In this document: in pieces, positions 17,288-47,349 of the stretch
How positions within the stretch are numbered: position 1 is the first letter of the stretch
Layout of the letters: the number at the start of each line of letters is the position of its first letter
The notes under the pieces: generated by a model
The model's input: the letters and a program-made list of their open reading frames with translations, nothing else
Databases searched by the model: none
Told to the model about the DNA's origin: nothing
Program-made: the position numbers and the translations under genes
NCBI GenBank assembly: GCA_051009975.1
Contig: JBPCWA010000510.1
Coordinates: 3,158-67,157 of the forward strand
Direction: 5' to 3'
Origin: Hyphomicrobiaceae bacterium
GTDB lineage: Bacteria > Pseudomonadota > Alphaproteobacteria > Rhizobiales > Hyphomicrobiaceae
DNA: 64,000 nt

Positions 17288-17385
17288 GGCATCGCCTTGC
17301 TTTGCAAGTTCCTTGGAGGCGCGAAACGGATCACTAGTTGCGCGCGGGGAGTGTCATGGAGAACCAAAAAGTCAGCGAGTCAACC

Positions 17386-17417
17386 GGTTGCAGGGCTAAA
17401 TCGACGCGCCTATATAC
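17386..17417 (+). promoter_or_regulatory. sigma32 (RpoH)-type heat-shock promoter candidate upstream of dnaK
   Basis: gGTTGCAG - 14 nt - GCCTATATA resembles CTTGAAA-N13-15-CCCCATnT / the alphaproteobacterial CYTATnT -10, about 120 nt upstream of the dnaK ATG. Pattern match by eye only. Confidence 0.4.
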
Positions 17418-17538
17418 GCAGCGAACACTTAAACTAAACTCCAGGGGACTGCGTCTCCAGGTCTAACGGATCGGGAGAAAGCGAGGGCCATAACGAGGAC
17501 TCGCACAGTCTGCCGCGAAAAGAGAGGACGACTAGAGA

Positions 17539-19470
17539 ATGTCAAAAGTCATTGGGATTGACCTTGGTACCACGAACTCTTGCGTCGCCGTTATGGATGG
17601 TGACCAGCCGAAGGTTATCGAAAATTCGGAAGGGATGCGTACCACTCCGTCCATCGTGGCGTTCGGAGACGACGGCAACGAGAAATTGGTTGGCATAGCG
17701 GCTAAACGGCAGGCCGTCACCAATCCCGAAAATACGCTGTTCGCAATCAAGCGTCTGATTGGTCGACGCTTCGACGATCCGACCGTTGAAAAAGATCAAA
17801 AGCTTGTCCCCTACCAGATTGTGAAGGCGTCCAATGGTGACGCCTGGGTCGAGTCGTTTGGAAAACAATATTCTCCATCGCAGATTTCCGCCGACATTCT
17901 GATCAAAATGAAAGAAACGGCCGAAGCGCATCTGGGTGAAACTGTCAGTGAAGCCGTTATCACAGTTCCGGCTTATTTCAACGACGCGCAACGCCAGGCA
18001 ACCAAAGATGCCGGCAAAATTGCCGGTCTTGAAGTTCTGCGGATTATCAACGAGCCGACTGCGGCGGCGTTGGCTTATGGCCTGGACAAGAAAGACAACT
18101 CCAAGATGATCGCCGTTTATGACCTAGGCGGTGGGACGTTTGACATTTCTATTCTGGAGATCGGTGACGGCGTATTCGAGGTGAAGTCTACCAACGGTGA
18201 TACGTTCCTGGGCGGTGAAGACTTTGATATGCGCCTGGTCGAATATTTAGCCTCCGAGTTTAAGAAAGAAAACGGCATAGATCTGACGAACGATAAGCTA
18301 GCTCTGCAACGCCTGAAAGAGGCGGCGGAAAAGGCAAAGATCGAACTTTCGTCGTCGGCTCAGACCGAGGTCAATCTGCCGTTCATTACGGCGGACCAAT
18401 CTGGTCCCAAGCATCTGACGATGAAATTGACTCGGGCCAAGCTTGAGAGTCTCGTCGAGGATCTAATCAAACGTACTGTTGGACCGTGCGGCTCCGCGCT
18501 CAAAGACGCCAATCTCAAGGCGGCTGAGATTGATGAAGTCGTGCTCGTTGGCGGCATGACACGCATGCCGAAGGTGCAGGAGACCGTCAAGAATTTCTTT
18601 GGCAAAGAGCCACATAAGGGTGTCAATCCAGACGAAGTTGTCGCCGTTGGTGCCGCAATCCAAGGTGGAGTTCTTCGCGGTGATGTCAAAGATGTTCTTT
18701 TGCTGGATGTTACCCCGCTGTCCCTGGGTATCGAGACGCTTGGGGGGGTATTTACGCGACTGATAGAGCGCAACACAACGATCCCGACCAAGAAGAGTCA
18801 GGTATTTTCGACGGCCGACGATGGTCAGAATGCGGTCACCATCAAGGTCTATCAGGGTGAGCGGGAAATGGCCGTAGACAACAAGCATCTCGGCACATTC
18901 GATTTAGTAGGCATCGCTCCGGCGCCTCGTGGCGTACCTCAGATCGAGGTCACGTTCGATATCGATGCGAATGGCATTGTCAACGTAAGTGCGAAGGATA
19001 AGGCGACAAACAAGGAGCAGTCTATCCGGATTCAGGCGTCGGGTGGCTTGGCCGATGACGAAATTGAGCGGATGGTTCAGGAGGCCGAGAAGCACGCTGG
19101 CGAAGACAAGAAGCGGCGCGAACTGGTGGAGGCGCGCAACCAGCTAGAGGCGCTTGTTCACTCCACGGAGAACTCCGTCAAAGAGGCTGGCGACAAGCTC
19201 GATGAAGCTGCCAAGGCGGAAGTGGATTCAGCCGTGGCGGCGGCGAAGGAAAAACTCGAGTCGGACGACCTTGAGGCGTTACAATCGGCGACCCAGGACC
19301 TGGCCCAAGCTTCAATGAAGATTGGTGAGGCTGTTTATGGAGGCCAGGCTGGAGAGACCGGCGAGGCGTCTAACGAATCAGACGCTGCCAATGACGGCGG
19401 CGCGAGCGACGAGAATGTTGTTGATGCCGACTTTGAGGAGGTTAAGGACGACGACAAGAAATCCGCCTAG
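17539..19470 (+). CDS. dnaK: molecular chaperone DnaK (Hsp70)
   Basis: [34 protein letters not shown]; full-length 643 aa. Confidence 0.99.
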
Positions 19471-19483
19471 TGAGTTGGGACGT

Positions 19484-19516
19484 GACGGCTCCAGTCAACC
19501 ATCGACCGGAGCCGTC
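19484..19516 (+). terminator. Stem-loop immediately after dnaK (attenuator or partial terminator candidate, no U-tract)
   Basis: Perfect 9-bp inverted repeat GACGGCTCC (19484-19492) / GGAGCCGTC (19508-19516), starting 14 nt after the dnaK stop. Confidence 0.35.
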
Positions 19517-19743
19517 CGACTCAGGACAATAAGCTAAGACGCGTTGAGTCAATTCGCTTTCGTTGCTTTTAACTGCAGCGTCGAATTCATGAGTTGTGTG
19601 GAATGGAGAGTTGCTGCTGAATTGGGAGGCGCTGCGTTCCCGTTGAAGACGTATCCGACTTCTTGAGTAAGGTTTCACTACTCAGTGGCCACTCAGTCCT
19701 CACGATCAACTCTCCACGAGTCAGTCCACACCACGCAGATCAA

Positions 19744-19781
19744 GGTGTGCAATTCGGTGTGTGCAATTCGGTGTGTGCAAC
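19744..19781. repeat. Three tandem copies of a 12-14 bp unit GGTGTGTGCAATTC in the dnaK-dnaJ spacer
   Basis: ggtgtgcaattc / ggtgtgtgcaattc / ggtgtgtgcaac, read directly. Confidence 0.8.
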
Positions 19782-20117
19782 ATAATGCGGGCAGTTCCGT
19801 TCACGAAATTTGGTCGACGATTATCTGTCGAGATACTTGGAACGCCGCTACGTGGCTAAGCGCTATGTGCCACGTCGGCCCGACGACGTAAATCGACCGG
19901 TTTGCTGTGCCCAATCCGTTTGCAAGAGCCAACCAGGCGATTGGACGTGTGACGGCTCAGTCGAGCAGGAAGCTGCAGCGGGTGTTGTCTTTGGGTAAAG
20001 GTACCGACTTTCTCTGATGATGTTGCACGCACAATGACCCATATGGGGAACAGAATTCATCTGATATGACAAAACAAACCAGCGGAAACCGTTATAATGC
20101 GGGATGATTTCGAAACA

Positions 20118-21248
20118 ATGGCCAAGCGGGACTATTACGAGGTTCTTGGGGTCGGTCGCGATGCGAGCGACCAGAAACTCAAATCGGCATATCGCAAATT
20201 GGCCATGAAGTATCATCCGGATCGCAATCCAGGTGATGAGGGCGCCGAACGCAGTTTCAAGGAGGTCAACGAGGCTTACGAGGCACTCAAAGATCCGCAG
20301 AAACGAGCAGCCTACGACCAATTTGGGCACGCTGCCTTCGAAGGGGGGGCAGGCGGGTCCGGAGGTTTTGGTCCCGATTTCTCACATTCGATGGAGAACA
20401 TATTCGAGGATTTCTTTGGCGACATTATGGGCGGTCGCCGCAGCCAGCGCAGCAAGTCTGGCCGAGAGCGCGGATCTGATCTTCGCTACAACATGGAAAT
20501 TTCCTTGCTGGAAGCCTACGAGGGAAAGACGGCGCAAATTCGCGTTCCAACGAGCGTTGCCTGTGAGACCTGTTCAGGCTCAGGGGCCAAACCAGGGTCA
20601 TCGCCCCGGACGTGCCCGACATGTAGCGGATTTGGAAAGGTTCGCGCGAGCCAAGGATTTTTCACAATAGAGCGCACGTGTCATACGTGTCAGGGTCGGG
20701 GAGACATTATCGACGATCCTTGCAGCCCGTGTTCCGGCGCTGGCCGTGTGAGCAAGGAGCGGACGCTGTCGGTAAATATTCCAGCCGGTGTCGAAGACGG
20801 GACGAGGATCCGACTGGCTGGAGAGGGAGAAGCCGGTCTGCGGTCCGGGCCCGCGGGAGATTTGTATATTTTCCTGTCAATCAAACCAGACGCATTCTTT
20901 CAGCGCGACGGATCTGACGTTTTCTGCCGAGTGCCGATCCCCATGGTAAAAGCCGCTCTGGGTGGTGAGATTGAGGTCCCAACGGTGGCCGGAGGTCTCT
21001 ATTCTGTCAAAGTTCCGGCCGGCAGTCAGTCAGGTACGCAGCTTCGACTTGGTGGGAAGGGTATGCCAATTCTGCGGTCGAAAGTGACTGGCGATATGTA
21101 TATTCAACTGGAGGTCGAGACACCTAAGAAATTGACCCGTCGGCAGCGCGAACTATTGCAGGAGTTTGAGAAAGAAAGTCGCACTGAGACGTCGCCGGAC
21201 ACCAACAATTTTTTCACACGCGTGAAAGAGTTTTTTGATACGAAGTAG
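20118..21248 (+). CDS. dnaJ: molecular chaperone DnaJ (Hsp40)
   Basis: [12 protein letters not shown]...[14 protein letters not shown] (J domain), a G/F-rich linker, and four CxxCxGxG zinc-finger repeats ([32 protein letters not shown]). Confidence 0.97.
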
Positions 21249-33247: not shown

Positions 33248-33856
33248 CTAGTTCTTCAGAAACGCATCGACATTTTGATTGATCGGTAGGACCGCGTCAT
33301 TGGACTCGAAAGGTTTGCCAGCGGTTTCGAGTCTATCCTTGAGGCGAGAGTTGCGGGACATCGCCGCTGGTTGATCAAGCGCCGCCGTTGCCTTGACAAG
33401 TTGATCCACATCACTCGCGCTCTCGTCATAGCAGAGCGCCCCCTTAATGATGGCTCCTTCCTCGATTGCGACGGTCCGATGATGGATTTCACTGTTTACA
33501 CAAGCTGTCTTTTCAATGACGACCCGCGTTGCGCGAATCACGCCGAGCGTGGCTCCCCGCACAAAAAGCTCGTCAACGGTTATAGCGCCTTCGACCGATG
33601 CGTTCTCGTCAACGATAAGGAGTTTGCATCTGATGTTGCCGTGGACGGCCCCTTTCACCATGATGTCTCCGTCGCTTTCGAGATCGCCGGTCATGGTTAG
33701 CCATTCGTCAATGACCGAATTCGACGGTGAGCGTCCATTGTTCGATTTTGGCACACCGACCGAGACCAGTGCGTTTTGGGACACTTGACCCTGATAATTG
33801 CCATGATGCAATTCAGGGCCAGGCCGGCCGTCGATCTCAGGTTTTTTGCTGAACAT
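33248..33856 (-). CDS. bactofilin-family cytoskeletal protein
   Basis: The beta-helix repeat region GDLESDGDIMVKGAVHGNIRCKLLIVDENASVEGAITVDELFVRGATLGVIRATRVVIEKTACVNSEIHHRTVAIEEGAIIKG is typical of DUF583/bactofilin. Confidence 0.85.
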   Translation of the reverse strand: MFSKKPEIDGRPGPELHHGNYQGQVSQNALVSVGVPKSNNGRSPSNSVIDEWLTMTGDLESDGDIMVKGAVHGNIRCKLLIVDENASVEGAITVDELFVRGATLGVIRATRVVIEKTACVNSEIHHRTVAIEEGAIIKGALCYDESASDVDQLVKATAALDQPAAMSRNSRLKDRLETAGKPFESNDAVLPINQNVDAFLKN

Positions 33857-34248: not shown

Positions 34249-35457
34249 ATGAAAGATGATGATGCCAAAAACGGCCGCTCAGACCGTTGGCTACCTCAGA
34301 CAACATTGGTCCATGGCGGCGTTCTACGCTCCCAGTTCGGTGAAACGTCCGAGGCACTCTACCTCACGCAAGGTTACCTCTACGACAGCGCGGAACAAGC
34401 TGAGCAACGCTTCAAGGATGAGGCAGGCGGATTCATCTATTCAAGATATGCAAATCCGACGGTTGCAATGTTTGAGGAACGCATGCGCTCGTTCGAAGGT
34501 GCCGGCGCTGGGCGTGCCACGGCAACAGGCATGGCTGCTGTTAGCGCGGCGATCTTGTCTTATGTGAGCGCCGGCGACCATGTGGTCTCTGCGCGAGCCT
34601 TGTTTGGGTCCTGTCGCTACATCGTCGAAGATCTTTGTCCAAGATATGGGATTGAGTCGACCCTCGTTCACGGACCTGACCTCGATCAATGGCGTGCAGC
34701 TGTTCGCTCGAATACTAAACTGTTCTTCTTCGAATCACCTTCCAATCCGACGCTTGATCTGGTCGACATTGTATCGGTCTGCAAAATTGCACGCGAAATT
34801 GGGGCACTCGTAGTCGTCGACAACGTCTTCGCGACGCCAATGCTACAAAGGCCGCTGGAACTCGGAGCGGACGTTGTGGTTTATTCGGCAACGAAACATA
34901 TTGATGGACAGGGCCGTTGCCTCGGTGGAATTGTTCTTGGCTCGAAAGACTACGTCAGTGACAACTTGCATACATACTTGAAGCATACCGGCCCATCGCT
35001 TAGTCCGTTCAACGCTTGGACTCTACTTAAGGGGCTCGAGACGCTGCCTGTTCGCGTACGGCAGCAGTGCGAAAGTGCAGATGTTGTGGCCCACAGTCTT
35101 AGCGGACGCCATGATATCAACAGGGTCATTTATTGTGGGCATGACTGTCATCCTCAGATCGAGCTGGCGAAACGTCAAATGCACGGGGGCGGGCAGATCG
35201 TATCGTTCGAATTGGCTGGAGGCAAAGTCCATGCCTTCAAGTTTTTAAATGCTCTGAAGTTGATAAGACTGTCCAACAATCTTGGAGATGCCAAGAGCCT
35301 TATCACGCATCCGGCGACGACGACCCATCAACGACTGAAACCCGAGGAGCGCGAGCGACTTGGCATTGGTGACGGCCTTGTTCGATTGTCGGTGGGTCTC
35401 GAAGCGACCGAGGATATTCTAGCTGACATCGAGGCTGCATTGGCCGCAGCTGGCTGA
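34249..35457 (+). CDS. metZ: O-succinylhomoserine sulfhydrylase (PLP-dependent Cys/Met metabolism family)
   Basis: WLPQTTLVHGG, YSRYANPTV, VVYSATKHIDGQG (PLP lysine), LSNNLGDAKSLITHPATTTH, LVRLSVGLE. Confidence 0.92.
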   Translation: MKDDDAKNGRSDRWLPQTTLVHGGVLRSQFGETSEALYLTQGYLYDSAEQAEQRFKDEAGGFIYSRYANPTVAMFEERMRSFEGAGAGRATATGMAAVSAAILSYVSAGDHVVSARALFGSCRYIVEDLCPRYGIESTLVHGPDLDQWRAAVRSNTKLFFFESPSNPTLDLVDIVSVCKIAREIGALVVVDNVFATPMLQRPLELGADVVVYSATKHIDGQGRCLGGIVLGSKDYVSDNLHTYLKHTGPSLSPFNAWTLLKGLETLPVRVRQQCESADVVAHSLSGRHDINRVIYCGHDCHPQIELAKRQMHGGGQIVSFELAGGKVHAFKFLNALKLIRLSNNLGDAKSLITHPATTTHQRLKPEERERLGIGDGLVRLSVGLEATEDILADIEAALAAAG

Positions 35458-35745
35458 TCCATTGGGCGACAAGTGTTCGTGGTCTGTGGCGGTGTAGGGA
35501 AATGAACTCTTTTCGTAATGGTGTCACATTCCGATCTCGGTCATTCAGTTTATCTTCCGAAGGTGGAAATTCAGAGTTGGAAAAGTCTTCGTTCCTCCAA
35601 CGCAGCGAGGTATTGCATGAACTCACAGCTCATTTCGTGGATCGCAACCACAGGATCTGGAAATAAGAGTGCAGAACCAAATAACGATGATTTCAGATGC
35701 ATGTATTGATGGCCTGGAACTATCGAACAATGTAAGGAGCTGGCA

Positions 35746-38700
35746 ATGTCGATCCATGTGGCCCTAACCCACAGGACAACATACACTTACGACCGCCAGA
35801 TCAGTCTTGGTCCGCAAATTGTGCGGTTGCGGCCTGCGCCGCATAGCAGAACTCCCATCTTAAGCTATGCGCTTTCTCTCACGCCCGAAGACCATTTTCT
35901 CAACTGGCAGCAAGATCCCTTTGGTAACTTTCTCGCCCGCATGGTGCCGCATTCAAAGACCAAGGAGTTCTCAATAACGGTCGATTTGGTGGCGGACGTT
36001 TCGATTATCAATCCATTTAATTTCTTCCTCGAAGAGACGGCCATGCTGTGGCCGCCGTCGTACTCGGCGCTCGAACTTTCGGAACTCGCGCCATATCTGG
36101 CTCACGAGCCACCTGGAGACCGCCTCAAGGCGTATCTTACCGAGATCACAGGCGACATGGATGGCCAAACGATTGATGAAATTGTTGCGCTCAATCAGCG
36201 TGTGGAGCGAGATATCGGCTATGTCATTCGGATGGAAGAGGGAGTTCAGCCGGTAGAGGAAACCTTGCGTATGGCGTCAGGATCCTGTCGCGATAGCGGT
36301 TGGTTGTTGGTTAATATTCTTCGAAATCTCGGACTGGCCGCACGATTTGTTTCTGGCTATCTTATCCAGTTGAAGCCAGACGAAAGGCCCCTAGAAGGGC
36401 CGGTTGGTACCGATCAAGACTTCACAGATTTGCACGCATGGGCCGAAGTCTACCTTCCAGGGGCCGGTTGGGTTGGGCTTGATCCGACATCTGGATTGCT
36501 TGCTGGTGAGGGCCACATTCCCTTGGCGGCAGCCCCTCACTTCGCGTCCGCTGCTCCTATCTCCGGTCGCCATGAGCCGTCCGAAGTTTCGTTCGACTTC
36601 AGCATGCAAATTCGTCGGATCGCTGAAACACCCCGAGTAACAAAGCCTTATAGCGAGGTGCAATGGCGAGAAATTCTGGCGGCGGGACGAGATGTTGATG
36701 TGCGCCTCGAGAAGAGCGACGTACGTCTGACTATGGGCGGGGAACCCACATTCGTATCAGTCGATGACATGGATGGTGCAGAGTGGACGACCGAAGCGGT
36801 CGGTCCAACAAAGCGGGCGTTCGCCGAAGGTCTTGTACGCAGATTGGCGCGTCGGCGTGCGAGTGGGGCACTGCTGCATTTTGGGCAAGGTAAATGGTAT
36901 CCGGGCGAGCAGTTGCCGCGCTGGTCTTTCGCTGTTTACTGGCGCAAAGATGGTCAGCCGTTGTGGGAAGATGAAACCCTGATAGGATGGGAGAGGCCCG
37001 AAGTTCAGGCGTCGATACAATCGGCGGAGAATTTTACGCGCGAATTGTGCAATCAGATGGGGTTGCCGGCGGATAGTGCTTTGGCTGCCTATGAGGATGC
37101 TGCCTATTTCGCGCTGGTTGAGCAAAAATTGCCCCTGGGCGAGAGCGTATCCGAGAATGAGATCGAAGATGAAGCTGAGCGCGCACGTCTCATTAGGGCC
37201 TTTGATCGTGGATTAGCAACGCCAGTCGGATTCATTGTTCCTATCCAGGTATGGCAAACCAAGGATCGCGGTCGACGTTGGGTTACTGAGCGTTGGAGGA
37301 CACGACGCGACAAACTGTTTTTGCTACCTGGCGATTCACCTATTGGATTTCGATTGCCATTGGCTGGACTGCGCCACGTTCCAGGAACGGATTATCCGCA
37401 CATGAGGCCGCGTGATCCGCTTTCGCAATATGAGCCTTTGCCGCAACGTGCAGAACTTCTGTTTCAGCGTCGCTCAGTTGCACTTGAAGAAACTGCAGCC
37501 GCTGATGCGAACGTAGAAGAGATTGCGGGCAGTGTGCGCACAGCGATGGCTATCGAGCCGCGCGATGGTCAGCTCTGCATTTTCATGCCACCGCTAACTG
37601 ACGCTGAGGATTATGCGGCACTGGTGGCGGCTATTGAGGAGAGTGCAAAGCACACACGCACACCGATTCGAATTGAAGGCTACGAGCCACCAAGTGATCC
37701 GCGGCTGTGTGTTCTCAAAGTGACACCTGACCCTGGTGTCCTTGAAGTCAACACCAACCCGGTAGCGAATTGGGATGATGCAGTCGACGATACATATACG
37801 CTCTATGAAGATGCCCGCGAATCGAGGTTGGCAACTGAAAAGTTCATGATGGATGGGCGACATACCGGTACCGGTGGCGGCAACCATATTGTCCTCGGGG
37901 GCCCCTCCGCAGCTGACAGTCCCTTTTTGCGTCGCCCAGATCTCTTGGCCAGCATCATTACCTATTGGCAGCACCATCCCTCTTTGTCTTATCTCTTCTC
38001 CGGCTTGTTTCTCGGTCCAACGAGTCAGGCGCCACGCGTCGATGAGGCTCGTCATGAGCAGGTTTATGAGCTTGAAATTGCAATGGCTCAGCTGCCTGAA
38101 GTGGGAGCTGAGCCACCGCCACTTTGGTTAGTCGATCGATTGTTTCGAAACTTACTGATCGATTCGACCGGCAACACGCATCGTGCTGAAATTTGTATCG
38201 ACAAACTCTACTCGCCTGACGGACCGGCAGGTCGCCTCGGCCTGGTTGAATTTCGATCTTTTGAAATGCCGCCGCATGCGCGTATGAGTTTGGCGCAGCA
38301 ATTGCTTCTCCGGGCACTGGTTGCGGTTTTCTGGGAAAAGCCATATCGCCACCGTATGGTCCGATGGGGCACAGCGCTGCACGATCGCTTCATGTTGCCC
38401 CATTTTGTGTGGTCAGATTTTGTAAGTGTACTCGAGGACTTAAACGCCAATGACTTTGCATTCCGAGGGGAGTGGTTTGCACCGCATTTTGAATTTCGCT
38501 TTCCGGCCTACGGCTCGGTTTGCCACGGTGGTGTGAGATTGGAAGTTCGACAGGCGCTTGAACCGTGGCATGTCTTGGGAGAGGAAGGTGCCGTCGGAGG
38601 AACAGCTCGTTACGTCGATAGTTCTCTAGAGCGATTGCAAGTCATGTGCACAGGATTGGTTCCAGGCCGCCATACAATCCTGTGCCAGGGACAACGAGTG

Positions 38701-39045
38701 CCACTGATGGAAACCGGCGTGTGGGGAGAGGGCGTTGCAGGCATCCGCTATCGCGCGTGGCAACCACCGACCGCGTTGCATCCGACGATTGGAATTCACT
38801 CTCCTCTTACCTTCGATATTGTAGACACATGGTCGAATCGCTCGATCGGCGGTTGTCGGTACCATGTGTTTCACCCCGGTGGGAAGTCGCCGGACACCTT
38901 CCCAGTGAATTCCTATGAGGCTGAAGGACGGCGATTGGCAAGATTTGAAGCGATAGGTCACACACCTGGCGACGTCACGCTACCGCCGCCGATCGTCAAT
39001 CCCGACTATCCATCTACACTCGACCTTCGCCGCATTGGCGTGTGA
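35746..39045 (+). CDS. large transglutaminase-family protein (N-terminal transglutaminase-like region with core, plus a long DUF2126-type C-terminal region)
   Basis: MSIHVALTHRTTYTYDR... N-domain. The core has an intact Cys-His-Asp triad: ASGSCRDSGWLL, TDLHAWAEVYLPGAGW, VGLDPTSG. 1099 aa. Confidence 0.9.
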   Translation: MSIHVALTHRTTYTYDRQISLGPQIVRLRPAPHSRTPILSYALSLTPEDHFLNWQQDPFGNFLARMVPHSKTKEFSITVDLVADVSIINPFNFFLEETAMLWPPSYSALELSELAPYLAHEPPGDRLKAYLTEITGDMDGQTIDEIVALNQRVERDIGYVIRMEEGVQPVEETLRMASGSCRDSGWLLVNILRNLGLAARFVSGYLIQLKPDERPLEGPVGTDQDFTDLHAWAEVYLPGAGWVGLDPTSGLLAGEGHIPLAAAPHFASAAPISGRHEPSEVSFDFSMQIRRIAETPRVTKPYSEVQWREILAAGRDVDVRLEKSDVRLTMGGEPTFVSVDDMDGAEWTTEAVGPTKRAFAEGLVRRLARRRASGALLHFGQGKWYPGEQLPRWSFAVYWRKDGQPLWEDETLIGWERPEVQASIQSAENFTRELCNQMGLPADSALAAYEDAAYFALVEQKLPLGESVSENEIEDEAERARLIRAFDRGLATPVGFIVPIQVWQTKDRGRRWVTERWRTRRDKLFLLPGDSPIGFRLPLAGLRHVPGTDYPHMRPRDPLSQYEPLPQRAELLFQRRSVALEETAAADANVEEIAGSVRTAMAIEPRDGQLCIFMPPLTDAEDYAALVAAIEESAKHTRTPIRIEGYEPPSDPRLCVLKVTPDPGVLEVNTNPVANWDDAVDDTYTLYEDARESRLATEKFMMDGRHTGTGGGNHIVLGGPSAADSPFLRRPDLLASIITYWQHHPSLSYLFSGLFLGPTSQAPRVDEARHEQVYELEIAMAQLPEVGAEPPPLWLVDRLFRNLLIDSTGNTHRAEICIDKLYSPDGPAGRLGLVEFRSFEMPPHARMSLAQQLLLRALVAVFWEKPYRHRMVRWGTALHDRFMLPHFVWSDFVSVLEDLNANDFAFRGEWFAPHFEFRFPAYGSVCHGGVRLEVRQALEPWHVLGEEGAVGGTARYVDSSLERLQVMCTGLVPGRHTILCQGQRVPLMETGVWGEGVAGIRYRAWQPPTALHPTIGIHSPLTFDIVDTWSNRSIGGCRYHVFHPGGKSPDTFPVNSYEAEGRRLARFEAIGHTPGDVTLPPPIVNPDYPSTLDLRRIGV

Positions 39046-39323
39046 TCGGTAGACGGCAGCCAGTCTTTCATTTCGAGCTTAGGTGGTGATCGATGTTGCC
39101 GACCAAGCTAACTGATTTGCGCTTAACTTCAATGGGTTGTACGCTATCACGTGCGAATTGTGTCGGCCGTGGCGTGGTCCTGAATTTGGTGAAAGGAGGG
39201 GTAGGCTGCGACGGATGTGTCGAGAAGTCTTTTCATCATATGTTCGGCTCAACGTCTGTAGTGACGTCGAATAATCTTCTTGGATGTCGGACTGGGCCAA
39301 GTGATTCCAAGTCATTCCAAGGG

Positions 39324-39440
39324 AGGCCAGTCGAAGCGAGGCAGTCGAAGCGAGGCAGTCGAAGCGAGGCAGTCGAAGCAAGGCAGTCGAAGCAAGGCAG
39401 TCGAAGCAAGGCAGTCGAAGCAAGGCAGTCGAAGCAAGGC
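39324..39440. repeat. Eight head-to-tail copies of the 14-bp unit AGGCAGTCGAAGC(G/A), plus a partial ninth, in the spacer between cluster genes 1 and 2
   Basis: Read directly. The first unit has one extra C. Units 2-3 end in G and units 4-8 end in A. Because 14 is not a multiple of 3, all six frames give spurious repeat ORFs. Confidence 0.95.
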
Positions 39441-39479
39441 CATGTCGGGTGATCAGGCAATGTTGGGAGCCTATAGGAA

Positions 39480-42062
39480 TTGAACGTCGATAATTCATAT
39501 ACCTACGATAGATTTCCGAGAGCCTACGAACAGCTTCTGACAGACTATCGAAGGCAAACCAACGGATTTGATGAGCTCCTAGGCGCAGATGGTGCGGTGC
39601 GTGCCCATTGGCGCCCGATAATGAACGAACTCGATCGGCTTGGGCACGAGCGTGCAGCCGGGGTGTCGGAGAGGATCCAGCGGCGCATTGTCGAGAACGG
39701 CTTGACGCTTGACAGCTTTGCCGATCCCAAGAATGCGGATCAGCCTTGGAATCTCAATTTGGTGCCGTTGGTTCTTCCTATTGGAGAATGGCGGACCATT
39801 GAGCAAGCAGTGATACAGCGGGCGCGTCTTTATGAATTGCTCCTCGCCGATCTCTATGGACCTCAATCCGTCATTTCCGAGGGGCTGTTGCCGGGTGAGT
39901 TAATATTCAACGATCCAACATTTCTCCGTCCCATGCATGGGACGCCAGCAGTACCACGAAGGCTGATGTTCATGGCGGCCGATTTGGCGCGCGGAAGCGA
40001 CGGCCGCTGGCGACTTCTCGATATTCATGCAGAAACGCTCGCAGGCCATGGATATGCACTGGCCAATCGCGTTGTGCTAGCTGACGTGTGCGCGCGCCAG
40101 TTTCATGAGAGCAACGCGCTGCGTATTTCGCAATTTTATCAGGACGTCGCTCGGGAATTGGGAAGTCGCGCAAACAAGGAGGTCCCCAATATCGTAATTC
40201 TCGGGCCGAATCCGGACTACGAGACCTACCTCAGTCATGCTTATACGGCGCGATACTTGGGGTATCCGTTGGTGGAAGGGAGCGATGTCCGTGTCGTTGG
40301 AGGCAAGCTCTATCATAAGACCCTGGCAGGCTTGCAGCCGATCGATCTCGTTGTGCGCGCGGTAGAGGCTCTAAAGTCGGATCCACTTGAGCTCGATCCG
40401 AACGCGTTTGACGGCCCGCCCGCGCTGGTGCAAGCGGCACGGACCGATCCAGGATTGCTCGCCAATGCGCTCGGTACGGCCATTGTAGAAAACCGCGGAC
40501 TTGCGCCCTACCTAGCAAAGTTGAGCCAGCATCTGTTGGGTGAAGTACCCATGATTTTCGATGCAGAACGCCTTTGGCTGGGCGATCCTGCCGTTCGGGC
40601 GGCGGTGATTGGTAACGGCGGTGAAGGGTACCTCATCCGCTCAGCCTTCGAAGGAACAGCGCGACCAGGGCAAGCCAATCCGGGTGAACTTCTCTCGCCG
40701 GCCGATACTGATCGTTACGCCGAGATGGTTTCGGAGATAGAGCTTAACGGCACACGTTATGTTGCCGAGAAGTCTTTGCAGTTTGCTACGGCCCCAGCCT
40801 GGACGTCCGAGGGACTGACACCAAGGCCATACGCGTTGCGCGTTTTCGTTGCTGCGAGCGGAGATAGTTACAGCGTTATGCCAGGCGGCATTGCACTCAC
40901 GATCGATTGCGGCGCAGCGATTGCATTGACGTCGGACGCAGCCGAATCGCGCGATGTTTGGATTTCGGCCGCAGAGCCACAGGGACCTCACTTTAGTCGA
41001 TGGCGCCTGTCCGTGGAAGAAACTCAAGTTCAGCGTATCGGTACGCGGCTGCCGAGTCGCGTTGCCGACAACTTGTATTGGCTTGGCAGGTATGTCGAAC
41101 GCGCGGACTGGACGATGCGAGTTATGCGAAATGCGTTGCAACGCGGTGAGGAAGACTTACGCCCCATCAGACGAACAGACGCAGCCGAAAGTGCTCTCGC
41201 GATAATGATCAAGAAGGGGCGCGAGGCGGCAGACGTTGCCCGTGAATCGGACGGACCGGTGTCCATCGAGGCGCGAGTGGAGGAGCTTTTTGCTGCAGCT
41301 GAGCGGCCATATGGAATTCGCACGACCTTTCGACACATCCGACGCGTGGCACGTCAAAGCCGAGATCGCTTGTCAGCCGACGCGTGGCGGGTTCTGAGTA
41401 GTTTGTCAATCGCTGGCGATACATCCTCTGCAGGCGGCGCGGATCCAACGATTGAACTGGCCGAGCGCTTGGACAGCCGTATCGCCCAACTGGCGGCATT
41501 CAACGGCCTGATGCACGAAAACATGACGCGCAACTTTGGGTGGCGGTTTCTGGATCTAGGGCGGCGGCTGGAGCGAGCGCAGCAAATGGCCGAATTGCTG
41601 AAATCTCTGCTTTTGAATGCGATGAGCGAAGCCGACGAGACGGAGCGGCTTGCATTCCTTTTGGAGACATCTGATAGTTTTATGACTTATCGTGCGCGAT
41701 ATCGTTTTGCGCCGTCATTCCCTCTTGTACTCGATTTGCTTATGGTCGATGAAACCAATCCGCGAAGTTTGTCATTTCAACTTGTAGGAATTTCAGACCA
41801 TATCGCAGAGCTGCCGAAAGCATCGGTCGATGCGATCCGAACACCAGAGCAGCGTCAGGCGTTGGAGTTGCTGACGCTCGTCCGTTTGGCCGACTTGGAG
41901 GCACTTCGTACGGTCGATGAAGATGGGGTTCGGGGCGGGCTGGCGGACTTGCTCGACCGGATTATCGGCGGCCTGCCGGAACTGTCGGATACAATATCAC
42001 GGCGCTATTTTAGCCTTACCGAAGAGCGACCACATCGTGTTCACACGCGTCTCGAGCACTAG
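39480..42062 (+). CDS. circularly permuted type-2 ATP-grasp domain fused to an alpha-E domain (DUF404/DUF407 + DUF403 type)
   Basis: FDELLGADGAVRAHWRPIMNEL..., PWNLNLVPLVLPIGEWRTIEQAVIQRARLYELLLADLYGPQ is the characteristic N-terminus. The C-terminal third (ADNLYWLGRYVERAD ... GWRFLDLGRRLERAQ) is the alpha-E repeat signature. TTG start at 39480 is uncertain. Confidence 0.9.
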   Translation: MNVDNSYTYDRFPRAYEQLLTDYRRQTNGFDELLGADGAVRAHWRPIMNELDRLGHERAAGVSERIQRRIVENGLTLDSFADPKNADQPWNLNLVPLVLPIGEWRTIEQAVIQRARLYELLLADLYGPQSVISEGLLPGELIFNDPTFLRPMHGTPAVPRRLMFMAADLARGSDGRWRLLDIHAETLAGHGYALANRVVLADVCARQFHESNALRISQFYQDVARELGSRANKEVPNIVILGPNPDYETYLSHAYTARYLGYPLVEGSDVRVVGGKLYHKTLAGLQPIDLVVRAVEALKSDPLELDPNAFDGPPALVQAARTDPGLLANALGTAIVENRGLAPYLAKLSQHLLGEVPMIFDAERLWLGDPAVRAAVIGNGGEGYLIRSAFEGTARPGQANPGELLSPADTDRYAEMVSEIELNGTRYVAEKSLQFATAPAWTSEGLTPRPYALRVFVAASGDSYSVMPGGIALTIDCGAAIALTSDAAESRDVWISAAEPQGPHFSRWRLSVEETQVQRIGTRLPSRVADNLYWLGRYVERADWTMRVMRNALQRGEEDLRPIRRTDAAESALAIMIKKGREAADVARESDGPVSIEARVEELFAAAERPYGIRTTFRHIRRVARQSRDRLSADAWRVLSSLSIAGDTSSAGGADPTIELAERLDSRIAQLAAFNGLMHENMTRNFGWRFLDLGRRLERAQQMAELLKSLLLNAMSEADETERLAFLLETSDSFMTYRARYRFAPSFPLVLDLLMVDETNPRSLSFQLVGISDHIAELPKASVDAIRTPEQRQALELLTLVRLADLEALRTVDEDGVRGGLADLLDRIIGGLPELSDTISRRYFSLTEERPHRVHTRLEH

Positions 42063-42248
42063 ATCAAAATGGGCGATCCATGACAGAGTATTGTCGATGT
42101 TCGAGCTTTTTCGGTTCCATTGTCTATTCAGAAATATGTGCAACTCGGTCAGATTCGCTCGATAGGTTTTGGTTGAAGAAATTTGTGCCGGAGATAGTCT
42201 CAAACACATCATCGCAGAACGGGATCGGCCGCTAGGCCCTTAGGCTCA

Positions 42249-43145
42249 ATGAACTACGAGATCAGCCACACGACGACATACCAATACGCACACTCCGTAC
42301 ATCAATCCTATCACTTGGTTCATCTCACTCCTCGTGTCGTCGCGCATCAGGTCATTGCAGAGCATCACATTACTGTTGAACCGGTCCCAGGGGGGCAGTG
42401 GGGAGGCGTTGATTATTTTGGCAACCCATACAGTATCCTTAATGTTGAAATCGAACACAATCGGCTTGTGGTGAGTTCTGCAAGCAAAGTTCAGGTCCAC
42501 GCCAAAGCCCTACTTGCACTGGACGAAACAACCCCTTGGAGGGCGTTGGCGCGTCGAGACGTTCCGAATATTGAGCAACATAAGGACGTGTGGCAATTCA
42601 CGGCTATGTCGCGGCATGGCCCGCTGGTCCAAGCATTGGCGGAATATGCTCAACCATCGTTTTCGAACAATTGCCCAGTATTGGTCGGTGTCGCCGACCT
42701 GACGCGGCGCATCTATGAAGACTTTTCGTTTGATCCGACTGCAACTGATGTGTCAACGCCGGTAGAAACAGTTCTCAAGCAGCGGCGCGGAGTATGTCAG
42801 GATTTCGCACATTTGCAAATCGCAGCTCTGCGATCTCTGGGGCTTCCGGCAAAGTATGTGAGCGGCTATATTTTAACGCATCCACCAGAGGGTCAGCAAC
42901 GTCTGGTTGGGGCCGACGCATCGCACGCTTGGATATCGACATGGGCCCCAGAGTGCGGCTGGGTAGACTTTGATCCGACCAACAATGTTATTCCGAGCGA
43001 TGAACACATAACCGTTGCCTACGGTCGTGACTATGATGACGTTAGTCCAATCAGTGGAGTGTTGCTCGGAGGTGGTCACCATTCCGTTCAAGTGGCGGTC
43101 GACGTTGTTCCGGTTCAGGCTGCAGAAGATGGTGTCGGTCTATAG
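42249..43145 (+). CDS. transglutaminase-family protein (bacterial TGase N-terminal domain plus cysteine-protease-like core)
   Basis: MNYEISHTTTYQYAHSV N-domain and an intact triad: RRGVCQDFAHL, ADASHAWISTW, WVDFDPTN. Confidence 0.9.
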   Translation: MNYEISHTTTYQYAHSVHQSYHLVHLTPRVVAHQVIAEHHITVEPVPGGQWGGVDYFGNPYSILNVEIEHNRLVVSSASKVQVHAKALLALDETTPWRALARRDVPNIEQHKDVWQFTAMSRHGPLVQALAEYAQPSFSNNCPVLVGVADLTRRIYEDFSFDPTATDVSTPVETVLKQRRGVCQDFAHLQIAALRSLGLPAKYVSGYILTHPPEGQQRLVGADASHAWISTWAPECGWVDFDPTNNVIPSDEHITVAYGRDYDDVSPISGVLLGGGHHSVQVAVDVVPVQAAEDGVGL

Positions 43146-43225
43146 GCGGTCAGTCGGGTGCGCCGCAATGGTTATTATAGTCATCGCATTCGGCTGTTAT
43201 TAGGGCGCCGCTATTGGAATGGGCA

Positions 43226-44836
43226 TCAGACGCGGCAGGCCATTCCATCACCGGCTGGGTCAGCCCCGCCATCGAATGTCCCATCGATCATGCGAATTGC
43301 ATGAACGGCTGGGCGCAAATAGCTCTGCGCGTGGCGCAGGGTTGGATAACCGAGATCCTGAAGCTCACGCTCGGTCGAGCGGAGGATGCGGTTCGTAACT
43401 TCGATCGTATTCGATGTTGCCATGAAGCGAGGTGCGCAAACAGCTTCTTGGGCCGACATTCCGAAATCAATGACATTCAGGATTGCTTGCAAAATACCCA
43501 TGGTAATTGTTGTCCCGCCAGGCGCACCGACAACCAGAAACGGTTCTGCACCTTTGAAAATGATCGTTGGTGAAATAGCGGAAAAACGTGCCTTGCCGGG
43601 CGCAAGTGAGCCGGCGGTGCCCGGGCGAGGATCAAATACCATCATGCAATTATTGTACATGAAGCCGAGGCCATCGGTCACTACACCGGAGCTAGAACCA
43701 AGAGAATGTGTCATGGAAACACAGTTACCTTGTGTGTCGGCGACGCAAATATGTGTAGTGTCCCGACTTTCCGATCCGCCAGAATTGACCCGTGGGACGA
43801 TCGTTTTTTTGCCGCGCCGGATACGATCGGCCATGCGCTTGGCATAAGATTTTGAGCTTAGCTCGTCTATGGGAATATCCAAGAATCGCGGATCGCCCAT
43901 GCGGGAATCTTTGTCGACCGTCGCGATCTTCATCGCCTCCGCGACTATTGCAATATAGCTCGATGAGTTGTGGCCCAATTTCTCGAGTTCGAAATTTTCA
44001 AGAATATTGAGCATCAAGAGGAGCATGAGACCACCGCCGGGCAGCGGATTTGTTGCGACGTGAAAGCCGCGATAATCGGTGACAAAAGGCGCTGCAATTT
44101 CCGGTTGGCACGCAGCTAAGTCGGCGGTTGTGATGAGTCCGCCGTTGGCCTTCATATCGGCAATGATCTGCCGCGAGATTGCTCCAGTGTAGAAGTCGTC
44201 AGCGCCGTCCGCGGCCAGTCGTCTGTATGTTTGACCTAAATCTGGGTTTCGTAAGATTTCGCCGACTCGATAGAGTGTACTGTCAGGCTTGGTATAGATT
44301 TTTGCTGTAGCAGCAAAGTCTTTGAGGCCATGAACGCGGGCGATCCGTCCGTTCTCCTCCCCGCGCGTCCAGAACTCAAAGACCTTTGGTCGAACAACAA
44401 ATCCTTCTTCACAGTAGGTAACGGCCGGCTCTATGACATCAGCCAGTGATCGAGAGCCGTGGCGGGCGAGTGCCGTCGCAAAAGCACGCAGCGTCATTGG
44501 TGTCGTCATCGACTGATAGCCAATCTCATTGACCCGATCGCGAAGAATAAAGCCAAAGCCGTCATCGCATTCGCGCACAATCCGGTCCTGCCACATTTCA
44601 GGGCTAACTGTTGATGGCGCGCGGCCGTGGAAGTCGATCAATTCGTGCGTGCCACTGTGAGCCATATAAATATGCATTGATCCAAAGCCAGCGATTCCAC
44701 ACATTTGCGGATCGACGACCGTTTGTACTAGTGCTGCTCCGATCGCAGCATCAACAACGTTTCCGCCAGCTTTGAGAATATTGAGACCTTCTTCAACGGC
44801 CTCAGGCTGTGGCGCGCAGACCATCCCCTTGGTCAT
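43226..44836 (-). CDS. ggt: gamma-glutamyltransferase
   Basis: GGNVVDAAIGAALVQTVVDP, the autoprocessing site SRDTTHICVAD (Thr nucleophile), and GAPGGTTITMGILQ. Confidence 0.93.
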   Translation of the reverse strand: MTKGMVCAPQPEAVEEGLNILKAGGNVVDAAIGAALVQTVVDPQMCGIAGFGSMHIYMAHSGTHELIDFHGRAPSTVSPEMWQDRIVRECDDGFGFILRDRVNEIGYQSMTTPMTLRAFATALARHGSRSLADVIEPAVTYCEEGFVVRPKVFEFWTRGEENGRIARVHGLKDFAATAKIYTKPDSTLYRVGEILRNPDLGQTYRRLAADGADDFYTGAISRQIIADMKANGGLITTADLAACQPEIAAPFVTDYRGFHVATNPLPGGGLMLLLMLNILENFELEKLGHNSSSYIAIVAEAMKIATVDKDSRMGDPRFLDIPIDELSSKSYAKRMADRIRRGKKTIVPRVNSGGSESRDTTHICVADTQGNCVSMTHSLGSSSGVVTDGLGFMYNNCMMVFDPRPGTAGSLAPGKARFSAISPTIIFKGAEPFLVVGAPGGTTITMGILQAILNVIDFGMSAQEAVCAPRFMATSNTIEVTNRILRSTERELQDLGYPTLRHAQSYLRPAVHAIRMIDGTFDGGADPAGDGMACRV

Positions 44837-45264
44837 AACGGTCTACCTCTCACTCTGGAAGCAAGACTCAATGGAGGTCGATAGGTACATCGCGTTTGCC
44901 TCTGTCTCAAGATTTGACCATGTCTCAACAGAGGCCGGTCTCATAATCTATCGTGCATTTCTACGCGGTTTCAGAAGAAAATGCCGATCGAGTGCACACT
45001 GAGTGGTTAGCATGAAATTGCGAAATCCTATGACCTGGGTTGACCAAGAGATCAATTACTAGACCGTTCGGACTGAGCGCTGGTTTGCGAAGGCGCGCGG
45101 CAAATTGCGCTCGACTTCTGGCCATGTGGCGTGCGACGGGCATCGCATGCATAACCGGATCGTAAGTGGAGCCATGCGCGCCGAGAGGCATGGCTGTGGC
45201 CCTCGGCAGTCAACGAAAGACAGGCCGGCCGATACTTGCGTTTGCCAATAAATCAGCGCGGACC

Positions 45265-46455
45265 TTAAGCGAGATAATTGAGAAGGACGGCTACAAAGAG
45301 GGTTTGAGGAACAGCAATTGCTGGCAGTGCCAATGCCAATCGCCACGATCCGGTCGTATCCTTCAGGCTCATAATTTCGGTATAGTCGGTAGCGACGCCC
45401 GCCATCAGGAAGGCGAAGCCATTTCCCGGCGCTCCAGCTCGCGTTACGAGATCGGCAGCTAGCGGGGCGGAGCCTTCCGAACAGACTTCTATGACGGTTG
45501 CAGCAAGGACCGTGAGCAGGACACCCATAAGCGTTGGTCCGAACCACTCGGCAAATGCCTCTGCGGGTAAAATTGCGCGCAGCCCTGCAGCAAGGACAAC
45601 GCCAAAAAGCAACCAACGCAAAACCATTCGTGAGCCCTTCAATCCGTCACCCAGCATTGTGGCGGTTCCAACCCAACTGGGTTTGAGCCCTGTCATCCAG
45701 ACGCGGAGCGCATGGCCCAATTTTGCGTCTCCATTAGCGCTCGCTTCTTGACGAGCAGGATTGTCTGGCAAGTGACCATTGGCAACGAGCGCGTCAAAAA
45801 TCCAACCCGTGGACAGGGCTACCAAGGCGGACAAGATGACAAATGCGATAGTATAAACCCAACCGACGAGCGCAATGAGCAACACAGTTAAACTGAGTGA
45901 ATTCCAAGGGCTGGCGAGCAAGAAGGCCACGGTTTGACCAATGCTGGCGCCACGCTCATAGAGTTTCATGCCAACCATGAGTATACCGTGGCTGCAGAGA
46001 TCGAACAGGACACCGGCAGCAGTCGCGCGCAGGAGGCCTGTGGAACGGCGGCTGCCGGAAAGTGCCGAAATTACGATCCCGCGTGGAACGCGATCGAGCA
46101 AACCGACGAATAGAATACCAAGGCCGATTCCCCACCACATGGCATTCATAAGATCAAATGTTCCGCGCGCGAAGTGAGCGAAAATCGAGTGGCTGCTGTC
46201 TTGACCAACAATCAGCCATCCGACGTAACCGAAGGCCACAGCGAAAGCGCTGGACCACAACATCCAATCGATACGAGATCGCTTCGCTTCAGCTCCGGTC
46301 AACCCGTGCGCTGTCGGACAACACGCCGTTGAGATATCCGCGCGTCTGAAACCTCTATCTGTGCCACAATTGAGTGGCTCAGGATCAACTGTGACGCATT
46401 GAGAAGGGGCGTTTGTGTTCGAATCATTTTTGATTGTGTCCACCATGTTCAGCAA
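45265..46455 (-). CDS. permease, UPF0718/ArsP-like family, with a Cys-rich N-terminal tail
   Basis: Multi-TM protein with internal two-fold repeat character. The N-terminal cytoplasmic region carries C..C....CC (SQCVTVDPEPLNCGTDRG...STACCPTAHG). Confidence 0.75.
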   Translation of the reverse strand: MLNMVDTIKNDSNTNAPSQCVTVDPEPLNCGTDRGFRRADISTACCPTAHGLTGAEAKRSRIDWMLWSSAFAVAFGYVGWLIVGQDSSHSIFAHFARGTFDLMNAMWWGIGLGILFVGLLDRVPRGIVISALSGSRRSTGLLRATAAGVLFDLCSHGILMVGMKLYERGASIGQTVAFLLASPWNSLSLTVLLIALVGWVYTIAFVILSALVALSTGWIFDALVANGHLPDNPARQEASANGDAKLGHALRVWMTGLKPSWVGTATMLGDGLKGSRMVLRWLLFGVVLAAGLRAILPAEAFAEWFGPTLMGVLLTVLAATVIEVCSEGSAPLAADLVTRAGAPGNGFAFLMAGVATDYTEIMSLKDTTGSWRLALALPAIAVPQTLFVAVLLNYLA

Positions 46456-46545: not shown

Positions 46546-47349
46546 TCAAGTATCAGTTGGCCTTGTCTTTTGAATTGCCCTCCCGGCCAGAAATGCGCGA
46601 ATATTTTGTTGGGGTTCGCCGGTCGCATACGCAGTAGACAGCGCATCGATGCCGGCCCAAATACCTTCCTGAACCGAGACTTCTTGCCATTTGTTCATGA
46701 GCGCTTTTTGGGCCTTGATGGCAGTGGGGGCAGCGCGGCAGATGCCGTCGATCCACCTATCTATCTCGGCATCCAGGGTCTCGGGCTGCGCGACTTTCTG
46801 GATCAATCCGAACTGGAACGCAGTCCTGGCATCATAGGACTGTCCCGTAAGCAACATCTCACGTGTGCGCCCCCAACCAATCTGACCGGGAAGCAGCGCT
46901 GCTTCTATTACAGAAGGCAATCCCAAGTGCACCTCAGGCATCGCGAATGTTGCCGTCGAGGCTGCGGCACGCATGTCGCAGCTAGCCGCGACTTCAAGTC
47001 CGGCACCGAGACAGTATCCCTTGATCCGGGCGATAACTGGCACAGGACAGGCGCGAATGGCATGGCAGGCTCTGTGCAAATTTGTTATGAAAATGCGAGC
47101 GCTGTCCGCGCATAGACCGCTGAGTTCATTCAAGTCTGCACCGCCGACGAAGGCACGATCACCAGCACCTGTCAGTATGACGGCGCGAACGTCAAGTTGA
47201 GAGCTAACTTTTTCGAAGTTCTTGGTGAGAGCAATGATCAGGGCGCTCGACAGGCTATTGAGCTTGGCCGGATTGTCGATAGTAATTGTCGCAATCGGTC
47301 CGCGGACTTGATCTTCTGCTATCGTCAACTGCACGGTTGGATCGCTCAT
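46546..47349 (-). CDS. enoyl-CoA hydratase/isomerase (crotonase) family protein
   Basis: ITIDNPAKLNSL, VILTGAGDRAFVGGADL, GYCLGAGLEVAASCD, PEVHLGLP. Confidence 0.88.
   Translation of the reverse strand: MSDPTVQLTIAEDQVRGPIATITIDNPAKLNSLSSALIIALTKNFEKVSSQLDVRAVILTGAGDRAFVGGADLNELSGLCADSARIFITNLHRACHAIRACPVPVIARIKGYCLGAGLEVAASCDMRAAASTATFAMPEVHLGLPSVIEAALLPGQIGWGRTREMLLTGQSYDARTAFQFGLIQKVAQPETLDAEIDRWIDGICRAAPTAIKAQKALMNKWQEVSVQEGIWAGIDALSTAYATGEPQQNIRAFLAGRAIQKTRPTDT

Follow-up and report, generated by a model that had tools for sequence, protein, structure and literature searches.

Gene clusters that combine transglutaminase-like, circularly permuted ATP-grasp (cpATP-grasp), Alpha-E, and DUF2126 domains have been known from computational work since 2008–2009. 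Iyer, Burroughs, and Aravind (2008) described the Rv2566-type neighbourhood, and so, as cited in other papers, did Iyer et al. (2009). Here, we analysed such a cluster, consisting of the genes A, B, and C, on a 64,000-nucleotide stretch (the window) of contig JBPCWA010000510.1 from a metagenome-assembled genome (MAG) of a Hyphomicrobiaceae bacterium. Domain architectures and gene order of A-B-C are the same as in the Rv2566-type neighbourhood, and nothing essential differs; the window stands apart by unusually long spacers of 434 and 187 bp and by a 14-bp repeat of its own. Rv2567 and Rv2569c of Mycobacterium tuberculosis are presumably the counterparts of B and C. We conclude that the locus is intact but ordinary, one more example of a three-gene operon that is very common among bacteria; it adds nothing unique to the question of the operon's product, because tractable bacteria (Pseudomonas, Burkholderia, Sinorhizobium, and Azospirillum) carry this operon as well. 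Added here to the published predictions are evidence on the fold of DUF2126, a convergence of data on nitrogen limitation, and the exclusion of a neighbouring gamma-glutamyltransferase gene (ggt) from the system. An earlier note, made from the DNA sequence alone, had cited a prediction by Iyer, Aravind, and colleagues that the gene set makes and removes an ATP-dependent amide linkage, and the literature does attribute a peptide-ligase/peptidase prediction to Iyer et al.

The second relative is the Anbu operon (cpATP-grasp, Alpha-E, transglutaminase, and Anbu), which shares three of its four domain families with A-B-C. A paralogous Anbu-type set of P. putida was induced 11- to 37-fold by nitrogen limitation. 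In Yersinia, the cpATP-grasp protein of the Anbu operon releases phosphate from ATP, while neither interactions nor peptidase activity were found for the other proteins. A-B-C differs from this operon in that no Anbu gene is present in the window or conserved beside the cluster, the grasp and Alpha-E domains are fused in B, and a predicted DUF2126 ligase is present, which the Anbu operon lacks. In the Burkholderia form, an unfused grasp, an Alpha-E, and a small transglutaminase gene are added upstream to give six genes, whereas the window has only the three core genes. We also considered the rlo operon, which encodes an ATP-grasp protein and an inactive transglutaminase; it is a distinct system.

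The three open reading frames (ORFs) are located on the plus strand at 35746–39045 (A), 39480–42062 (B), and 42249–43145 (C), exactly where the earlier note had placed them. Protein A is 100% identical to a protein from a Hyphomicrobiaceae MAG. Gene A, with AGGAG 8–12 nt 5′ of its ATG, encodes a protein of 1099 residues in which a transglutaminase-like module is fused to DUF2126, a ligase-like module according to the evidence given below. The transglutaminase-like module (residues 6–247; 35761–36486, plus strand) comprises Bact_transglu_N (residues 6–83, 85 bits) and Transglut_core (PF01841; residues 130–247, 59.0 bits versus a cut-off of 23), and the DUF2126 region (PF09899; residues 278–1095; 36577–39030, plus strand) scored 1285.5 bits (cut-off 27) and covered positions 2–826 of the 826 positions of the profile. 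Gene B starts with TTG, the sole in-frame start past the stops at 39450 and 39474 that preserves the conserved N-terminus, and carries GGGAG 11–15 nt 5′ of this codon. Its 860-residue product consists of CP_ATPgrasp_2 (PF14403; residues 96–472; 39765–40895, plus strand; 306.1 bits versus a cut-off of 32) fused to Alpha-E (PF04168; residues 524–844; 41049–42011, plus strand; 243.4 bits versus a cut-off of 20.8) and so belongs to both families to which it had been assigned. Gene C encodes 298 residues with Bact_transglu_N and Transglut_core domains, the latter scoring 74.7 bits (cut-off 23). Pfam thus agreed with the domain assignments originally made for all three proteins, while NCBIfam returned no model match for A, B, or C. 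A consensus scan for promoters and terminators gave nothing above shuffled sequences.

The quoted catalytic motifs were located in both transglutaminase-like proteins. Protein A contains GSCRDS at residue 179, LHAW at 229, and GLDPT at 244, and protein C contains GVCQDF at 181, SHAW at 225, and DFDPT at 240. The resulting triad of A (Cys181, His230, Asp246) did not vary across 26 homologues, and that of C (Cys183, His226, Asp242) was at least 97% conserved among 44 syntenic orthologues, which bears out the original claim that both Cys-His-Asp triads are intact. In a Foldseek search, the transglutaminase domain of A matched PDB entry 3isr, a putative cysteine protease (E = 3e-11). Protein C matched the PDB entries 6g49, deposited as a protein-glutamine gamma-glutamyltransferase (1.6e-13), and 3isr (2.1e-11). 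The cluster contains two papain-fold transglutaminase-like modules with intact triads, namely the N-terminus of A and C. The N-terminal half of protein B (residues 26–495) matched PDB entry 3n6x with an E-value of 4.7e-43; the label 'glutathionylspermidine synthase' of this entry is a structural-genomics guess. An alignment of B orthologues revealed Arg171, Arg197, Arg258, Asp269, Arg293, Asp301, Arg321, and Asn329 as invariant, and the two Glu-Arg motifs of the Alpha-E domain (E540-R541 and E698-R699) were at least 97% conserved in 59 orthologues.

No hydrophobic or transmembrane segment and no signal peptide was found in proteins A, B, and C, which are soluble and cytoplasmic. This bears on the claim, made for Rv2569c, that C-type proteins are exported proteases of broad specificity, which would make the operon one for extracellular proteolysis. 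Recombinant M. tuberculosis Rv2569c was reported to have protease activity, and a deletion mutant to show phenotypes; the protein was described as a cell-wall-associated 'serine protease' that cleaves E-cadherin, casein, fibrinogen, and fibronectin, even though its conserved domain predicts a cysteine protease (PLoS Pathog 2024). AEBSF and PMSF inhibited this activity, whereas E-64 and N-ethylmaleimide did not, a pattern that is unexpected for a Cys-His-Asp enzyme, and the terms 'catalytic' and 'active site' occur nowhere in the text of that paper. Moreover, a host-specific substrate cannot apply to a free-living soil or water bacterium of the Hyphomicrobiaceae, and Rv2569c is only a presumed orthologue of C. 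We therefore regard export and extracellular proteolysis as a very improbable function of A-B-C.

To describe the conservation of the cluster, we used a scan with one genome per species, which matched at least 600 species. Eighty loci were kept for neighbourhood analysis; they span Alpha-, Beta-, and Gammaproteobacteria, Nitrospirales, Acidobacteriota, Bacteroidota, and Desulfobacteraceae. Of the 78 loci in which the position of B could be assessed, 74 had this gene immediately after A and in the same orientation, and C directly followed B in all 68 loci that could be evaluated for it. Spacers were short, with a median of approximately 38 bp (A-B gaps measured in 74 loci), and the same A-B-C order was seen with independent gene calls in locus L081. 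Clustering of the ORFs in the flanks of the 80 loci yielded no further recurrent neighbour family, so the conserved unit is exactly A-B-C. Among the flank clusters discarded, one present in 31 loci ('Cluster 2') consisted of antisense shadow ORFs of high-GC DNA, and clusters 3 and 4 were generic ABC ATPases and LysR regulators rather than system-specific neighbours. Nor was Anbu or any other Ntn-hydrolase, whose co-occurrence the earlier note had raised as a question, conserved with A-B-C in these loci. Thus, A, B, and C have been passed on together, closely spaced, in different phyla, and the co-occurrence that the earlier note had wanted checked is confirmed. DUF2126 alone is represented by 6134 clusters at 50% identity (1756 of them at E ≤ 1e-30) and occurs both with and without the transglutaminase fusion; gene A was found on 64 secondary replicons or megaplasmids, in Ralstonia, Burkholderia, Caballeronia, and Azospirillum. 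The cluster is hence as widespread and large as had been stated.

The same data speak to a role in anti-phage defence or genetic conflict, for which the only argument is that some functionally undefined operons with several enzymes have turned out to act in defence. PADLOC gave zero matches for A, B, and C at E-values up to 0.01, no signs of mobile elements were observed near the cluster, and the GC content was uniform (0.52–0.58) across the window. Stable chromosomal synteny across phyla, the lack of mobile-element or defence-island neighbours, and the membership of the B. cenocepacia cluster in a nitrogen regulon, described below, likewise argue against such a role, to which we give almost no credence.

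DUF2126 had been introduced as a very long region whose fold was still to be defined. Its length was confirmed; its status is less undefined than assumed, since both the 2008 study and our model point to a ligase. Iyer et al. (2008) placed DUF2126 among the carboxylate-amine ligases of the glutamine synthetase (GS)/GCS2 type; a literature search for DUF2126 under that name found no paper. The earlier note had suggested predicting the structure of the 1099-residue protein. A full-length AlphaFold2 (AF2) model of A was poor (pLDDT 64.6) and was discarded; Foldseek retrieved with it only the transglutaminase domain and meaningless diphtheria-toxin matches. DUF2126 was therefore modelled alone with AF2 from a more divergent alignment, which gave a good model (pLDDT 83.2, pTM 0.85). 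When this model was compared with the PDB, 48 of the 50 top Foldseek matches were GS, gamma-glutamylmethylamide synthetase (GmaS), gamma-glutamylcysteine synthetase (gamma-GCS; 2d32), GshF (3ln7), or Dop (5lrt), with many glutamine synthetases in the list. None of these matches was strong by itself: the best E-value was 0.017, probabilities reached 0.95, TM was 0.25–0.30 over approximately 290 columns, and sequence identities were about 10–15%. The conserved motifs GGEPTF, EVN, GGGNH, and EFRSFE lie on predicted strands of the model and may be similar to GS motifs. Pfam searches with three DUF2126 sub-segments at E-values up to 10 returned only DUF2126 and transglutaminase, and no GS or GCS family. 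The list of fold relatives agrees with the published assignment, and DUF2126 probably has a GS/gamma-glutamyl-ligase-like fold, although this is not proven. Read as a ligase, it would provide the operon with two different ATP-dependent ligases, DUF2126 and the cpATP-grasp of B. On this probable fold reading, the operon would thus comprise two ATP-dependent ligases, two thiol amidase/transferase modules, and Alpha-E.

Indications of a physiological role came from gene regulation. B. cenocepacia H111 has a run of adjacent genes, I35_5080–5084 (BCAM1233–1237), which are annotated, in this order, as DUF404/407, DUF403, transglutaminase-like, large transglutaminase-like, and DUF404/407/403. Their expression under nitrogen limitation was 3- to 9-fold lower in an ntrC mutant (tabulated values of −8.2, −9.4, −9.4, −6.0, and −3.1), and the published list of targets shared by sigma-54 and NtrC includes them. 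The counterpart in B. arboris, a member of the B. cepacia complex, has the same gene order, and its proteins aligned with A (55%), B (30%), and C (39%) of the window; a sigma-54-type site matching 9 of 11 consensus positions lies in front of the cluster (L083, 5418–5433). We scanned 79 sequences, that is, 78 loci plus the window, and found −24/−12 matches of at least 9/11 upstream of A in 14 of the 79, compared with 2/78 and 5/78 in the controls. All ten Pseudomonas-type loci (L028, L033, L039, L044, L061, L068, L069, L071, L072, and L074) share a fixed site, TGGCA(T/C)-N5-TTGC(G/C), approximately 53 nt upstream of A (locus position ~9948), and similar sites precede A in Zoogloea, Azonexus, and Limnohabitans. 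The Pseudomonas, betaproteobacterial, and B. arboris sites fit the NtrC/sigma-54 dependence published for B. cenocepacia, the one species in which it has been demonstrated by experiment. Across marine metagenomes, Bact_transglu_N, DUF403, DUF404, and DUF407 vary in abundance together with domains of urea metabolism. Thus, three independent lines, the Burkholderia regulon, the sigma-54-type sites, and the marine covariation, point to nitrogen limitation. As NtrC/sigma-54 induces orthologous clusters under this condition, the system probably serves the scavenging or redistribution of nitrogen.

One way to fulfil such a role would be direct nitrogen release, with the transglutaminase-like enzymes acting mainly as glutaminases, deamidases, or peptidases that liberate ammonia or amino acids from peptides, and the ligases re-capturing nitrogen or regulating the amidases. 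The intact thiol triads of A and C, the match of C to 6g49, and the NtrC/sigma-54 dependence together with the covariation with urea genes are all consistent with this, and the release of ammonia by the transglutaminase has been raised as a possibility in an Anbu paper. This reading would, however, leave unexplained why two different ATP-dependent ligases are so strictly co-inherited and are fused to the other modules. We consider nitrogen release as the primary function unlikely.

We favour instead a scheme in which the ligases would form amide bonds in two consecutive steps, through acyl-phosphates of the carboxylate that then react with an amine, and in which the thiol enzymes, i.e., the N-terminus of A and C, would hydrolyse or transfer the resulting amide. 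The product may be a small gamma-glutamyl-type amide or a short peptide rather than a gene-encoded protein tag, a proposal that we hold at slightly less than an even chance. It is favoured by the lack of a conserved tag gene near the 80 loci and by the fact that the nearest fold relatives of DUF2126 are small-molecule ligases. Two working analogies point the same way. The pairing of a GS-fold ligase with an ATP-grasp ligase in series mirrors glutathione synthesis by GshA and GshB or by GshF, and the fusion of an amidase module with a ligase-like module in A resembles glutathionylspermidine synthetase/amidase (Gss) of E. coli, in which a papain-fold thiol amidase is joined to the very ligase whose bond it cleaves. 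Both analogies draw on known enzymology and do not imply family membership; Pfam detected no GshA, GshB, GSP_synth, or CHAP family match in A, B, or C.

The main rival reading, protein or peptide tagging and turnover, holds that the ligases attach amino acids or peptides as tags to side chains or termini of cellular proteins and the transglutaminase-like enzymes remove or process the tags, so that the proteome is recycled during nitrogen starvation; such recycling would fit the observed induction under nitrogen limitation. Papers on Anbu cite Iyer et al. (2009) for a role of the cpATP-grasp/Alpha-E/transglutaminase set in peptide synthesis or tagging. Dop, a protein-directed GS-fold enzyme, was among the Foldseek matches of DUF2126, and pupylation by PafA/Dop employs the ligase superfamily proposed for DUF2126. 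RimK/RimB offers a precedent of an ATP-grasp enzyme and an opposing peptidase that act on a protein tail, and A is large, with extra beta-rich C-terminal parts in the model. In contrast to PafA/Dop systems, the window contains neither a Pup-like gene nor genes for a proteasome, and Pfam gave no match to Pup_ligase. Small ORFs (25–130 residues) upstream, downstream, and in the spacers of the 80 loci formed no cluster across phyla, and Iyer et al. (2008) likewise noted no conserved small tag gene near the cluster. Neither Anbu nor another protease partner is conserved with A-B-C, the proteins of the Anbu operon showed no interactions with each other, and the best fold matches of DUF2126 are small-molecule ligases. 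Tagging of proteins is in our judgement less likely than the small-amide scheme but remains its main alternative.

Several observations weigh against the small-amide scheme. Many transglutaminase-like enzymes with a papain fold have proteins as their substrates. The superfamilies of both ligases include protein modifiers (PafA/Dop and RimK), and paralogous operons carry the proteasome-like Anbu, which makes a protein or peptide substrate a serious alternative. With regard to DUF2126, the individual Foldseek E-values are weak (0.017 or higher), and a divergent sequence profile found no GS-like PDB chain. The enrichment of promoter matches is due mainly to Pseudomonas loci, which are not independent of each other. 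The candidate sigma-54-type site of the window itself, TGGAAATAAGAGTGCA at 35658–35673 on the plus strand, 88 nt upstream of A, is a weak match (8/11), much weaker than the sites at a similar distance in Pseudomonas and betaproteobacterial loci, and no site stands out in the Hyphomicrobium loci; nitrogen control is therefore not established for the organism of the window. Lysates of E. coli with Rv2567 and Rv2411c did not form GABA-trehalose, a negative result for one reaction (2026 preprint). Finally, no member with a defined substrate or product was found in the literature searched. This agrees with the earlier note, which knew of no experimentally defined substrate; its description of the set as functionally dark holds less well in view of the NtrC/sigma-54 data from Burkholderia and the protease claim for Rv2569c.

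In the most far-reaching proposal, two ligases in series would build, and two dedicated thiol amidases would degrade, a new cytoplasmic amide, either a gamma-glutamyl-type small molecule or an amino-acid tag put on proteins independently of a tag gene, as part of a widespread response to nitrogen starvation in hundreds of species, including Pseudomonas, Burkholderia, rhizobia, and mycobacteria. This combined proposal is tentative, and we would not expect all of it to hold. The family nevertheless ranks with the larger 'known unknowns' in the genomes of bacteria, being inherited as a unit at a coding cost of approximately 7 kb, and its product, once defined, would be a new metabolite or a new protein modification in bacterial nitrogen physiology. 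Useful in this respect are the view of the operon as a set of two ligases and two amidases, the finding that ggt is no partner, and nitrogen limitation as the condition under which the product may be found.

The ggt gene, which the earlier note had mentioned as lying immediately downstream, is indeed convergent with C and ends 80 bp past it (43226–44836, minus strand). The encoded gamma-glutamyltransferase (GGT) matched PF01019 with 402 bits and TIGR00066 with 372 bits (cut-off 357.85). It has no signal peptide and begins right at the mature domain, with the TTH processing motif present, and is probably a cytoplasmic hydrolase of the GGT family. A ggt-like gene within 10 kb of A was detected in only 1 of the 80 loci, at a distance of 8 kb and with 25% identity, and none was present near A in L081 and L082, the two closest relatives among the matches listed. 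As the adjacency is not conserved, ggt is not part of the system; the co-occurrence about which the earlier note had asked was not found. Both ggt and the upstream metZ (O-succinylhomoserine sulfhydrylase; 34249–35457, plus strand) are incidental to A-B-C. The other neighbours are a bactofilin gene (33248–33856, minus strand), an ArsP/SaoE-like permease gene (45265–46455, minus strand), and an enoyl-CoA hydratase gene (46546–47349, minus strand).

With three genes, the cluster of the window has the form seen in most loci, and the 64 kb contain neither a further grasp gene nor a further Alpha-E gene. In this it differs from L081 and L082 (76% and 74% identity), in which unfused cpATP-grasp and Alpha-E genes precede A directly (L081, 7416–9961; L082, 7374–9931; independent gene calls). 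This five-gene form was present in 7 of 68 evaluable loci (L081, L082, L046, L062, L065, L075, and L080), and the six-gene form of B. arboris (L083, 5490–8850) has an additional small transglutaminase gene. Protein B is approximately 24–26% identical to the unfused grasp and Alpha-E proteins. In the five- and six-gene forms, an Anbu-type set, without Anbu, is merged with the A-B-C set. In L082, B-C is inverted (17052–20506, minus strand) and separated from A by approximately 3.7 kb of unrelated genes (DUF2848, AtuA, and TPR); A and B-C can thus be uncoupled locally without being lost. In L023, L035, L045, and L055, A was present and B and C were absent within the locus sequence examined; the gene after A in L023 encodes a DNA methylase. 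In L062 and L060, A and B are separated by sporadic insertions, which encode an alpha/beta-hydrolase and a cyclase, respectively. Neither the insertions nor the broken cluster of L023 offered a functional lead.

The A-B spacer of the window (39046–39479, 434 bp) is unusually long and would rank third among the 74 measured. An Rfam scan of 35300–45000 gave no match in this spacer; a sub-threshold COG2908 match inside A (37497–37551, plus strand; 19.2 bits versus a gathering cut-off of 58.7, E = 0.36) is almost certainly due to chance. A 10-bp repeat of 2.5 copies at 39297–39321 precedes the 14-bp repeat at 39328–39440. The latter consists of eight copies of the unit CAGTCGAAGC(G/A)AGG, three of the G type followed by five of the A type (TRF score 205). 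Eight matches compare with 0.03 expected, and the repeat occurs nowhere else in the window and in none of the 80 related loci. A 119-residue ORF at 39093–39452 was considered as a gene for a repeat-peptide substrate and rejected, because the period of 14 bp is not in frame and both ORF and repeat are missing from the relatives. The repeat is thus a local feature outside the conserved system and may represent a minisatellite or a part of the MAG that is prone to assembly errors.

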